DNA of 64,000 nucleotides from Escherichia coli. Its GTDB lineage: Bacteria; Pseudomonadota; Gammaproteobacteria; Enterobacterales; Enterobacteriaceae. Position numbers and translations under genes: made by a program. The notes under the pieces were generated by a model, which saw only the letters and a program-made list of their open reading frames with translations, made no database searches and had not been told where the DNA came from. The stretch is from assembly GCF_003334405.1 (NCBI RefSeq), contig NZ_QOWM01000013.1. One strand, written 5' to 3'. Positions 8,242 to 13,109 of this stretch are shown here, piece by piece; the stretch's first letter is position 1; every line of letters begins with the position of its first letter.

Positions 8242-9378
8242 ATGGATTTACTGATTATTTTGACCTATGTGGCTTTTGCATGGGCAATGTTTAAGATCTT
8301 CAAAATTCCCGTAAATAAATGGACCATTCCCACAGCGGCCCTGGGTGGAATATTTATTGTCAGCGGTCTAATTCTGTTAATGAACTATAACCATCCGTAT
8401 ACCTTTAAAGCGCAAAAAGCGGTTATTTCTATTCCTGTTGTCCCACAGGTGACTGGTGTGGTGATTGAAGTGACGGATAAGAAAAATACGCTGATTAAAA
8501 AAGGTGAGGTGCTATTTCGACTGGACCCGACGCGTTATCAGGCGCGGGTGGATCGGCTGATGGCGGATATCGTTACCGCAGAACATAAACAGCGGGCGTT
8601 GGGCGCAGAGTTAGATGAGATGGCGGCGAATACTCAGCAGGCAAAGGCCACGCGGGATAAATTCGCTAAAGAGTATCAGCGTTACGCACGTGGCAGCCAG
8701 GCGAAAGTAAACCCGTTTTCAGAACGCGATATCGATGTGGCGCGGCAAAATTATCTGGCGCAGGAAGCCTCCGTGAAGTCATCGGCGGCGGAACAAAAAC
8801 AGATCCAGAGCCAGCTGGATAGCCTGGTGTTGGGTGAACATTCTCAAATCGCCAGCCTGAAAGCACAGCTCGCGGAAGCAAAATATAACCTTGAGCAGAC
8901 GATAGTGCGTGCGCCGAGCGATGGTTATGTGACCCAGGTACTGATTCGTCCGGGTACCTATGCCGCGTCGCTGCCGCTACGTCCGGTGATGGTGTTTATA
9001 CCCGATCAGAAACGACAAATCGTGGCGCAGTTCCGTCAGAACTCCTTGCTGCGACTGGCTCCTGGCGACGATGCGGAAGTGGTGTTTAATGCTCTGCCAG
9101 GTAAGGTATTCAGCGGTAAGCTGGCAGCCATTAGTCCAGCCGTTCCCGGCGGAGCTTATCAGTCGACCGGCACCTTACAGACGTTAAACACAGCGCCGGG
9201 TTCAGATGGCGTTATCGCGACCATTGAACTGGATGAGCACACTGATTTGAGCGCTTTACCAGACGGTATTTACGCCCAGGTGGCGGTTTACTCTGATCAT
9301 TTCAGCCATGTCTCGGTGATGCGCAAAGTGCTATTACGCATGACCAGCTGGGTGCATTACCTTTATCTCGATCATTAA
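8242..9378 (+). CDS. yiaV: HlyD-family membrane-fusion (periplasmic adaptor) protein YiaV
   Basis: 378-aa ORF with N-terminal TM helix and long coiled-coil region; 6 bp downstream of yiaW. Confidence 0.85.
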
Positions 9379-10349: not shown

Positions 10350-10472
10350 CGCAACAGCCCAATTATATATAATTTTATATATTACTATATAAATATGAAT
10401 CTTGCACCGGAGAAATTGTAAGCATTATTATGCCGACTCTTTTTTATCTTATTTTAAAATGGAATACCGGAC

Positions 10473-11213
10473 ATGTTAATTAATCGCAATATTGTGGCGT
10501 TATTTGCGTTGCCTTTTATGGCAAGCGCAACTGCTTCTGAATTATCCATTGGTGCTGGTGCGGCTTATAATGAATCGCCTTATCGCGGTTATAATGAAAA
10601 TACGAAGGCAATTCCGCTGATTAGTTATGAAGGTGATACTTTTTATGTTCGTCAGACCACGTTAGGTTTTATTCTGTCGCAAAGTGAAAAAAATGAACTT
10701 AGCCTGACCGCATCCTGGATGCCGCTGGAATTTGACCCTACCGATAATGACGATTATGCCATGCAACAGCTTGATAAGCGTGATAGTACGGCTATGGCGG
10801 GGGTTGCCTGGTATCACCACGAGCGTTGGGGAACCGTGAAAGCCTCTGCAGCTGCGGACGTTCTGGATAACAGCAACGGCTGGGTGGGGGAGCTATCGGT
10901 ATTCCACAAAATGCAGATAGGTCGTCTGTCGCTGACACCTGCGCTGGGCGTTCTCTATTATGACGAGAATTTCAGTGACTATTACTATGGCATTTCAGAG
11001 AGTGAGTCCCGTCGTAGCGGTCTGGCAAGTTATTCCGCGCAGGATGCCTGGGTGCCCTATGTCAGCCTGACGGCAAAATACCCGATAGGAGAGCACGTCG
11101 TATTGATGGCGAGCGCAGGATACAGCGAGCTGCCGGAAGAGATTACCGACAGCCCGATGATTGATCGTAATGAGAGTTTTACCTTTGTCACCGGGGTGAG
11201 CTGGCGTTTTTAA
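10473..11213 (+). CDS. yiaT: MipA/OmpV-family outer-membrane protein YiaT
   Basis: 246-aa ORF with signal peptide and C-terminal ...GVSWRF beta-barrel terminus. Confidence 0.85.
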   Translation: MLINRNIVALFALPFMASATASELSIGAGAAYNESPYRGYNENTKAIPLISYEGDTFYVRQTTLGFILSQSEKNELSLTASWMPLEFDPTDNDDYAMQQLDKRDSTAMAGVAWYHHERWGTVKASAAADVLDNSNGWVGELSVFHKMQIGRLSLTPALGVLYYDENFSDYYYGISESESRRSGLASYSAQDAWVPYVSLTAKYPIGEHVVLMASAGYSELPEEITDSPMIDRNESFTFVTGVSWRF

Positions 11214-11468
11214 TTCACCGGTGGATGTCGGTGCGGCTGGTGCTCCGTCGTAATGCCACAAAGGTTGTTGCTCTGGATTGCTCTGTTCATACCGGGAACC
11301 TGGCGTCTGAATCAGGATCTTATGGCTGAACAATCCCTTGCCTTCAAATGTCGTAAATGGCGCATCGGCGGGCAGCAACAGGTTATGCAGTGACTCGACG
11401 TTGTCGGCCTGCTCCATGCAATACGGTTTAATGACGTTGGCTATTTCCGGCAGATTTTTCAGAAACAT
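11214..11468 (-). other. Possible gene remnant or small ORF downstream of sgbE (about 85 codons before the frame runs antisense into yiaT)
   Basis: ATG at 11468..11466 opens a frame (MFLKNLPEIANVIKPYCMEQADNVESLHNLLLPADAPFTTFEGKGLFSHKILIQTPGSRYEQ...) with protein-like composition; no recognisable full-length homologue from memory. Confidence 0.2.
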
Positions 11469-11559
11469 ACTGGTTTAACGCCAGCAGCGTGGAAGCGGCG
11501 TTACAGCAAGGAACATATCAATTCGTAGTGCCGGGGCGATGAAGCCCCGGCGTGAGGGA

Positions 11560-12255
11560 TTACTGCCCGTAATAGGCATTGGCCCCATGCTTACGCAGGT
11601 AGTGCTTATCCAGCAGTTCGTTTTGCATCGCAGGGAGCTGCGGCGCAAGCTGGCGCGAGAATAGACCCATATAGGCGCATTCTTCGAGTACTACGGCGTT
11701 ATGCACGGCATCGGCGGCGTTTTTACCCCATGCGAACGGGCCGTGAGAATGCACCAGCACCGCCGGGATTTGTGCCGGACTCCTGCCACGTTCTTCGAAG
11801 GTTTCAATGATCACTTCGCCGGTCTGATATTCATATTCGCCGTTAATCTCCTCTGCGGTCATCTGTCGCGTGCAGGGGATGGCACCGTAAAAATAATCGG
11901 CGTGGGTGGTGCCCCAGGCGGGGAGATCCAGCCCGGCCTGTGACCAGATGGTGGCGTGGCGCGAGTGGGTATGCACAATACCGCCAATTTCGGCATAGCG
12001 ACGGTAGAGCGCCAGATGCGTTGGTGTATCGGAAGAGGGTTTTTTGCTGCCTTCCACCACCTTACCGCTGGCTATCTCAACCACCACCATATCGTCGGCG
12101 GTCATCACGTCGTACTCGACGCCGGAAGGTTTGATTACCATCCATTGCCGCGTTTCGTCTACCGCGCTGACATTGCCCCAGGTGAACGTCACCAGATGGT
12201 GAGCGGGAAGCGCCAGATTCGCCGCCAGCACGTCGGCTTTCAGTTGCTCTAACAT
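11560..12255 (-). CDS. sgbE: L-ribulose-5-phosphate 4-epimerase
   Basis: 231-aa ORF recognised as SgbE (class II aldolase/epimerase). Confidence 0.93.
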
Positions 12256-13109
12256 ATAAATCCAGCCTCCTGCATACGCGCTTCAATCCAACGCCGCGCC
12301 TGAATAATCTCCAGCACCGGCTCTTTGGCTTTTTCGGTCCACATCTCAATCAGGAAAGAACCGCGATAGTTCAGTTTATGCAGCGTTTTGAAGATGCCAA
12401 CGAAATCGACGCAGCCTTCGCCAAACGGCACGTCGCGGAACTGTCCGGGACTTTGCCCGGTGACTGGCTGGGTGTCTTTCAGGTGGATCGCGGCGATACG
12501 GTCAATGCCCAGTTTCAGTTCGGCGGGAACATCATTGCCCCAGGCGCTGAGGTTGCCGACGTCCGGGTAGACGGTGAACCACGGTGAGGCGAGCATCTCG
12601 TCCCATTTTTTCCATTTGCTGATGGAGTTCATAAACGCGGTATCCATAATCTCCACCGCCAGCATTACTTGTGATGCCGCCGCCTGTTCGACTGCCCACG
12701 CCAGCCCTTCAGCAAAACGTTGCCGGGTGCCTTCGTCGTGGTCTTCGTAATAGACGTCATAACCTGCCAGCTGGATGGTGCGAATGCCGAGATCGCGCGC
12801 CAGGCGAATCGCTTTACTCATGATTTCCCGCGCCCGTTCGCGCACTGCCTCGTCACGGCTACCAAAGGGAAAGCGACGATGTGCGGACAGGCACATCGAC
12901 GGGATCCCAACACCTGTTTCGATCATCGCGGCAACCAGCGAAGTCCTTTGTGCGGCGCTCCAGTCAAGACGTGAGAGCCGTTCGTCGGTTTCATCCACCG
13001 ACATTTCGACAAAATCAAAACCGCAGCTTTTTGCCAGCACCAGCCGCTCCGGCCAGGAGAGATCTTTCGCCAGCGCTTTTTCATAAATCCCTAACGGATG
13101 ATTACGCAC
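12249..13109 (-). CDS. sgbU: L-xylulose-5-phosphate 3-epimerase
   Basis: ORF track gives 316 aa; I place the start at GTG 13109..13107 preceded by a ggaggtg RBS, giving the 286 aa I recall ([12 protein letters not shown]...). Confidence 0.88.

Follow-up and report, generated by a model that had tools for sequence, protein, structure and literature searches.

The yiaT-sgbE gap of Escherichia coli K-12: a probable deletion scar with relics of two cassette genes

The genes yiaT and sgbE of Escherichia coli K-12 are separated by a short gap whose sequence has a coding-like look. Does this gap hold an overlooked gene, and if not, where does its resemblance to coding sequence come from? The first-pass annotation, made on a window of 64,000 nt (the whole stretch of DNA analyzed here), had described a gap of 346 bp, a minus-strand frame that starts at ATG 11468 and runs on antisense through the 3' end of yiaT, and a GC-rich hairpin between this frame and sgbE. 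It considered the frame a possible relic of a gene that once followed sgbE. The size of the gap holds, as yiaT ends at 11213 and the stop codon of sgbE occupies 11560-11562. The K-12 identity of the locus is given by a stretch of 3,471 nt around the gap, which shows one mismatch, at 13096, against the MG1655 record NZ_LR881938.1; the gap itself is identical to this record. The lone G/T difference at 13096 lies inside sgbU and represents trivial strain or record variation.

In our analysis, the 346 bp are very probably a deletion scar without coding function. Read in this way, the yiaT-sgbE gap of K-12 holds no overlooked gene, and its coding-like look is explained. The importance of this result beyond housekeeping is small. 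We will refer to the following features of the window throughout:

10473..11213, plus strand: yiaT, encoding a MipA/OmpV-family outer membrane protein; intact left flank, with the minus-strand ORF antisense over its last 219 nt
10995..11468, minus strand: ORF of 157 aa with ATG at 11468, named 'Ybl149' or hypothetical protein in some records
11214..11240, no strand: retained start of the spacer after yiaT, ending in GGCTGG (11235..11240)
11232..11423, minus strand: ysaD (b4649), internal fragment of a GH127 beta-L-arabinofuranosidase-family gene, with DNA homology over 11235..11424
11427..11528, plus strand: ysaC (b4648), last 33 codons and stop (11526-11528) of an AraC-family regulator gene
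11461..11471, no strand: five clustered substitutions within 11 nt; K-12 reads CAGAAACATACT, the cassette-bearing locus L002 CGCAAGCACACC
11530..11551, no strand: hairpin of 8 bp composed of G and C only, arms GCCGGGGC / GCCCCGGC with the 6-nt loop gatgaa, as read in the sequence
11560..12255, minus strand: sgbE, encoding L-ribulose-5-phosphate 4-epimerase; intact right flank and last gene of the yiaK-sgbE operon

The two relics in this list are not new. The MG1655 record NC_000913.3 already lists them as pseudogenes ysaC and ysaD, at 3750813..3750914 and 3750918..3751109, which map exactly to 11427..11528 and 11232..11423 of the window; sequences and coordinates agree, and nothing differs between the annotated pseudogenes and the relics described here. 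PGAP marks both pieces as incomplete CDS. The finding is therefore real but ordinary. A literature search for ysaC and ysaD yielded a single E. coli paper of relevance; in its strain table, the genotype of a published K-12 reporter strain places a construct between ysaC and ysaD (PMC12361893). What we did not find in the literature searched is the anatomy of the scar, namely its two junctions and its parent cassette, which BL21-type strains and many wild ones carry in intact form.

The parent cassette and the deletion junctions

A protein search with the 63-aa product of the GH127 scrap returned only 10 short proteins, all of them ORF calls on scars or broken genes, and no full-length parents. 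The parent was therefore found via DNA comparison. When the gap was compared by megablast against 5,426 complete E. coli genomes, the query split between 11424 and 11425 in about half of them. The two halves lie approximately 4 kb apart, with three annotated genes in between, as exemplified by locus L002 (NZ_AP022036):

minus strand: GH127 protein, 659 aa
minus strand: MFS transporter, 466 aa
plus strand: AraC-family regulator, 271 aa

Thus, a full-length parent as sought by the homology check proposed in the first-pass annotation does exist, in the form of the 659-aa GH127 protein. It does not directly follow sgbE, as had been supposed, since in cassette strains the convergent AraC-family gene and the MFS transporter gene intervene. 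Direct alignment of the window to L002 gives three collinear blocks, which enclose the larger of two deletion junctions:

10473..11240 = L002 8324..9091: yiaT and 27 nt
11235..11424 = L002 9302..9491: inside the GH127 gene, 89.5% identity
11424..11425: junction of the 4,021-bp deletion, with L002 9492..13512 lost; blunt, without microhomology
11425..12255 = L002 13513..14343: AraC-family 3' end, hairpin and sgbE

The junction sequences of both deletions were read directly. The 4,021-bp deletion took codons 1-558 of the GH127 gene, the whole GPH/MFS symporter gene and codons 1-238 of the AraC-family gene. The second deletion, of 216 bp, is bounded by the 6-bp microhomology GGCTGG and took the last 39 GH127 codons together with the spacer between the GH127 gene and yiaT. 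In L002 this spacer (9092..9184) carries two REP-like palindromes (GCCTGATAAGACG...CGCATCAGGC and GGATGCGGCGCGAGCGCCTTATCC) and a third hairpin; the 216-bp deletion of K-12 spared only the left arm of the first spacer hairpin, at about 11229..11236 of the window.

The intact GH127 protein is composed of the domains PF07944 (aa 12-427), PF20736 (438-532) and PF20737 (534-649). Its best relatives of solved structure are 4qjy (E = 3e-232), a GH127 beta-L-arabinofuranosidase, and 3wkw (E = 1e-149), titled 'non-reducing end beta-L-arabinofuranosidase', which we take to be HypBA1 of Bifidobacterium longum. The E. coli parent shares the full three-domain architecture of these enzymes. The transporter of the cassette matches TIGR00792, the GPH:cation symporter model, above cutoff, while the regulator, annotated as AraC family, matches AraC-family models below their curated cutoffs. 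Judging from these family assignments, the cassette presumably serves, under AraC control, to import and cleave a plant-derived beta-L-arabinofuranoside. K-12 lacks this putative cassette, which about 43% of the sequenced E. coli genomes carry.

The following course of events would account for the locus. The ancestor would have carried the three-gene accessory cassette between yiaT and sgbE, with the AraC-family regulator gene on the plus strand divergent from a minus-strand unit of the GPH-family MFS sugar symporter and then the GH127 glycosidase. Two illegitimate deletions, the blunt one of 4,021 bp and the one of 216 bp at GGCTGG, would have taken nearly all of it. Left over would be today's ysaD, with 63 internal codons of the GH127 gene, and today's ysaC, with the final 33 codons of the regulator gene. 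The antisense of ysaC would have been joined by chance in frame to ysaD, and a K-12-type substitution would then have supplied an ATG, so that a long chance ORF arose. The scrap would afterwards have decayed as a pseudogene. Nothing was found that contradicts the deletion-scar reading. It leaves two observations unexplained, the openness of the frame over 157 codons and the invariance of the GH127 scrap in scar alleles; both can be read as constraint, or be explained equally well by a scar haplotype of recent common origin.

Relics of two genes and the GC-rich hairpin

The gap contains relics of two lost genes on opposite strands. The supposition of a lost gene in the first-pass annotation was right in kind, but one relic does not suffice. 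Its view that the frame from 11468 is no intact gene was likewise correct.

Within the 659-aa protein, ysaD covers aa 559-621 and lies wholly inside the C-terminal domain PF20737. Its homology to the GH127 family is clear, and fragments over the same region carry PF20737. The catalytic domain is absent, since PF07944 covers aa 12-427 of the parent and the scrap begins at aa 559; nor is the frame complete, as both ends are missing and the last 39 codons fell to the smaller deletion. PF07944 carries the Cys nucleophile and the Zn site, as known from HypBA1. With this domain wholly deleted, the scrap can therefore have no activity. Unlike 4qjy and 3wkw, K-12 thus retains 63 residues of the C-terminal domain and nothing of the catalytic one.

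ysaC is identical to aa 239-271 of the 271-aa regulator at 32 of 33 positions. It matches positions 253-282 of 290 of the RhaR model and 260-289 of 292 of the AraC model. Like AraC and RhaR, it aligns to the extreme C-terminus of the models, the end of the second helix-turn-helix. Members of the AraC/XylS family combine an N-terminal sensing or dimerisation domain with a C-terminal domain of some 100 aa that contains two helix-turn-helix motifs; unlike them, the relic, with its 33 aa, lacks the first 238 residues, and with these the sensing domain and the larger part of the DNA-binding domain, and has no start codon.

The GC-rich hairpin is real and does lie between sgbE and the start of the frame, although at 11530..11551 and not at 11526..11548, where it had been placed. 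Its folding energy is -19.9 and -20.8 kcal/mol on the two strands, with z about -5.4 to -5.5 against shuffled sequences, and its pattern has no second match in the 64-kb window. It begins one base after the stop of the AraC relic and ends eight bases before the stop codon of sgbE. Both arms are identical in all five sampled cassette-bearing alleles that retain sgbE (L002, L004, L006, L007 and L008), where the only change concerns one base of the loop.

Along with Rho-independent terminators between convergent genes, the hairpin is short, very stable, built of G and C only and located between convergent stops. Unlike them, it is followed by no U tract on either strand, the tails being ACUACGAAUUGA (minus) and GUGAGGGAUUAC (plus). 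Therefore it falls outside the canonical definition of an intrinsic terminator and was missed by a consensus terminator scan. A search of 10400..12400 against Rfam at a permissive threshold gave only a sub-threshold match of CRISPR-DR16 on the hairpin; with 19 bits against a gathering score of 35 and E = 0.45, we regard it as chance and rejected the assignment to this RNA family.

In the ancestral arrangement, the hairpin would have been a stem-loop that separated sgbE from the regulator gene convergent with it. We infer that it formed a 3'-end structure common to both convergent units and now serves yiaK-sgbE only. It survives because it lies outside the deletion. Most likely, it still functions in the yiaK-sgbE transcript as a 3'-end structure or as a stabilising element.

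The minus-strand reading frame

The frame from ATG 11468 reaches 10995 and therefore runs antisense through the yiaT 3' end, over the last 219 nt, just as the first-pass annotation had read it. The frame is chimeric: its first 15 codons read the opposite strand of ysaC, ysaD (11423..11235) supplies codons 16-78, and the remainder consists of spacer and antisense yiaT; the non-relic part amounts to the first 15 and the last approximately 79 codons. The frame is in register with the GH127 scrap because 11468 - 11423 = 45. Codons 16-78 are identical to residues 559-621 of the GH127 protein WP_001026898 at 56 of 63 positions (BLASTP, E = 4e-38). The protein-like composition noticed earlier over about 85 codons was hence not a matter of chance, but only 63 of these codons are true coding relic: the first 15 are antisense to the AraC-family relic, and the last seven or so belong to the spacer after yiaT. 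Compared to the ysaD annotation, the ORF merely prolongs ysaD at both ends into non-homologous sequence.

The start codon had been taken as part of the relic. It falls instead into the antisense of the AraC-family C-terminus, within the cluster of five substitutions at 11461..11471. Four of these five changes are at third codon positions of the AraC frame and are spaced exactly 3 nt; all five lie within the first 48 nt of K-12 ysaC. The change at 11468 creates CAT, the minus-strand ATG of the ORF. Both other scar alleles examined, L011 and L012, have C at 11468, hence GTG instead of ATG, and are without four or all five of the K-12 changes. The cluster may be a remnant of a divergent parent allele or a small conversion patch. 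An intermediate form of it exists, as the variant P0002 begins MFAK...

Could the frame nevertheless encode an expressed protein, so that the scar gave rise to a new chimeric gene, the 'Ybl149' of some records? It is open over 157 codons in K-12 and in the two diverged scar alleles, i.e., in all three scar alleles examined; gene callers predicted it in several records (P0001, P0002); about 2,459 genomes share the GH127 scrap without variation; and the position downstream of sgbE on the same strand would allow read-through transcription. Against this stands, first, the lack of signals for expression. Upstream of the ORF there is no Shine-Dalgarno sequence (the sequence read is GCGTTAAACCAGTATG), the promoter scan detected no promoter-like site between sgbE and the ORF, and the stable hairpin of about -20 kcal/mol separates the two. 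Apart from this, the promoter and terminator scans gave two weak terminator-like sites, at 11486..11468 on the minus and at 11436..11451 on the plus strand, a number not above that obtained with shuffled sequences.

Second, the start of the frame is ATG in K-12 but GTG in L011 and L012, and variants from other strains end differently: P0001 comprises 93 aa with another C-terminal tail, and the tails of P0005-P0007 are frameshifted. About 73 codons are antisense to yiaT, so that openness over this part is not independent evidence. The fragment amounts to just a portion of a single beta-sandwich domain and has no match among NCBIfam families. Changes on the branch of the scrap are mostly radical and nonsynonymous (see below), and the region is classed as pseudogenic both in the curated record NC_000913.3 and by PGAP. 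In the literature search, no paper on translation of the ORF was found. Altogether, we consider an expressed protein very unlikely; as far as the sequence can tell, the minus-strand ORF is probably not a gene.

That the frame is a chance ORF without homologues, i.e., random sequence that happens to look protein-like, the outcome under which the first-pass annotation would have withdrawn its relic, is hardly credible in view of the GH127 match (E = 4e-38), of the alignment of both scraps to intact GH127 and AraC genes, and of DNA that is collinear with an intact cassette in thousands of genomes.

Divergence and distribution of scar and cassette

The deletion-scar reading makes the cassette the older state. 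The reverse order, with the K-12 arrangement as the ancestral one and a later insertion of the cassette into other strains, may be suggested by the variability of the region: at least six architectures make the locus a rearrangement hot spot, and the cassette is accessory in E. coli, where GH127 is treated as a variably present gene (PMC11879602). The K-12 pieces themselves contradict it. The GH127 piece lacks both ends, the regulator 3' piece has no start, and the two are joined blunt at sites that lie 4,021 bp apart in the intact cassette. Internal and 3' fragments joined in this way can be created only by deletion, not by insertion. In addition, related GH127 genes with about 89% identity to L002 occur in Escherichia whittamii and Escherichia sp. 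E1V33. A later insertion is thus extremely improbable.

On the level of the population, the K-12-type scar was found in 2,461 of the 5,426 complete E. coli genomes (about 45%), and at least 80% of the cassette in 2,314 (about 43%). The cassette is intact in Nico21(DE3), a derivative of BL21(DE3), and is also present in O157:H7. Its GH127 gene was reported to correlate with invasiveness in IBD isolates (PMC11879602).

Scar and intact gene are separated by a marked gap in identity. In 2,459 genomes, the GH127 scrap of 190 nt matches K-12 with an identity of 99% or more; the same 190 nt are 80-95% identical to the K-12 scrap in 2,167 genomes with an intact gene; a single genome falls into the band of 95-99%. 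The scrap is 9.5-12% diverged from every intact E. coli allele (about 2,170). Sampled intact alleles are 0-8 nt apart mutually and 18-23 nt from the scrap; they differ by 22-26 nt from E. whittamii and Escherichia sp. E1V33, and the scrap differs from these outgroups by 25 nt. In L011 and L012, the scrap shows zero differences from K-12, while yiaT differs by 2% and sgbE by up to 5.7%. No closer parent allele was found among the sampled intact alleles (L002, L004-L008), none of which exceeds 90.5% identity to the scrap. A scan of the genome collection with the back-translated pattern PFTTFEGKGLF gave only Escherichia sp. E1V33 and E. whittamii, 87-89% identical, and did not reveal a donor lineage.

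When changes are polarised by the outgroups, the scrap branch carries 6 nonsynonymous and 2 synonymous changes; for the stem leading to the intact alleles, the respective counts are 1 and 7 (Fisher p = 0.04). The nonsynonymous changes of the scrap include W->L, G->V and Y->S. A mostly nonsynonymous branch indicates decay, as the pseudogene reading predicts. The idea that the scrap stems from a still-selected divergent allele, for which a pN/pS of about 0.16 could be taken, was rejected: polarisation places the synonymous changes on the intact-allele stem.

The scar haplotype is far removed from all intact E. coli alleles but has hardly any variation of its own, as would fit an old or introgressed haplotype that spread only recently. 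It is conceivable, though rather doubtful, that the scar haplotype came from another Escherichia lineage, or split off as deep as one, and recently spread across diverse backgrounds; the numbers that suggest such a history are small, as they derive from 190 nt in all. Should this hold, strains with and without the cassette would represent a polymorphism that was introgressed or has been maintained for long, and on which selection may act.

The interval between aldB and sgbE is a rearrangement hot spot, and the following six architectures were seen:

1: yiaT-cassette-sgbE
2: yiaT-scar-sgbE
3: aldB-cassette-sgbE
4: aldB-hicAB-cassette-sgbE
5: aldB-sgbE
6: yiaT-cassette, then the whole yiaK-sgbE operon deleted (O157:H7)

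Three of the loci inspected (L003, L007 and L008) are without yiaW-yiaV-yiaU-yiaT. In L003, aldB directly adjoins sgbE, and a Fic-family gene is located between yiaY and aldB. In L007, aldB adjoins the cassette, whose GH127 gene is frameshifted. In L008, aldB is followed by the hicAB toxin-antitoxin pair and then by the cassette. The deletion junction of O157:H7 strain 7409 (L005 7541..7700) is located in the loop of the GC-rich hairpin and continues into a C-terminal remnant of the IclR-family gene beside ysaA. Finally, in strain WP3-S18-ESBL-09, yiaN (TRAP transporter large permease; L002 18348..18491) carries an internal stop and is annotated as a pseudogene; therefore, the neighbouring operon is also decaying in some cassette-bearing strains.
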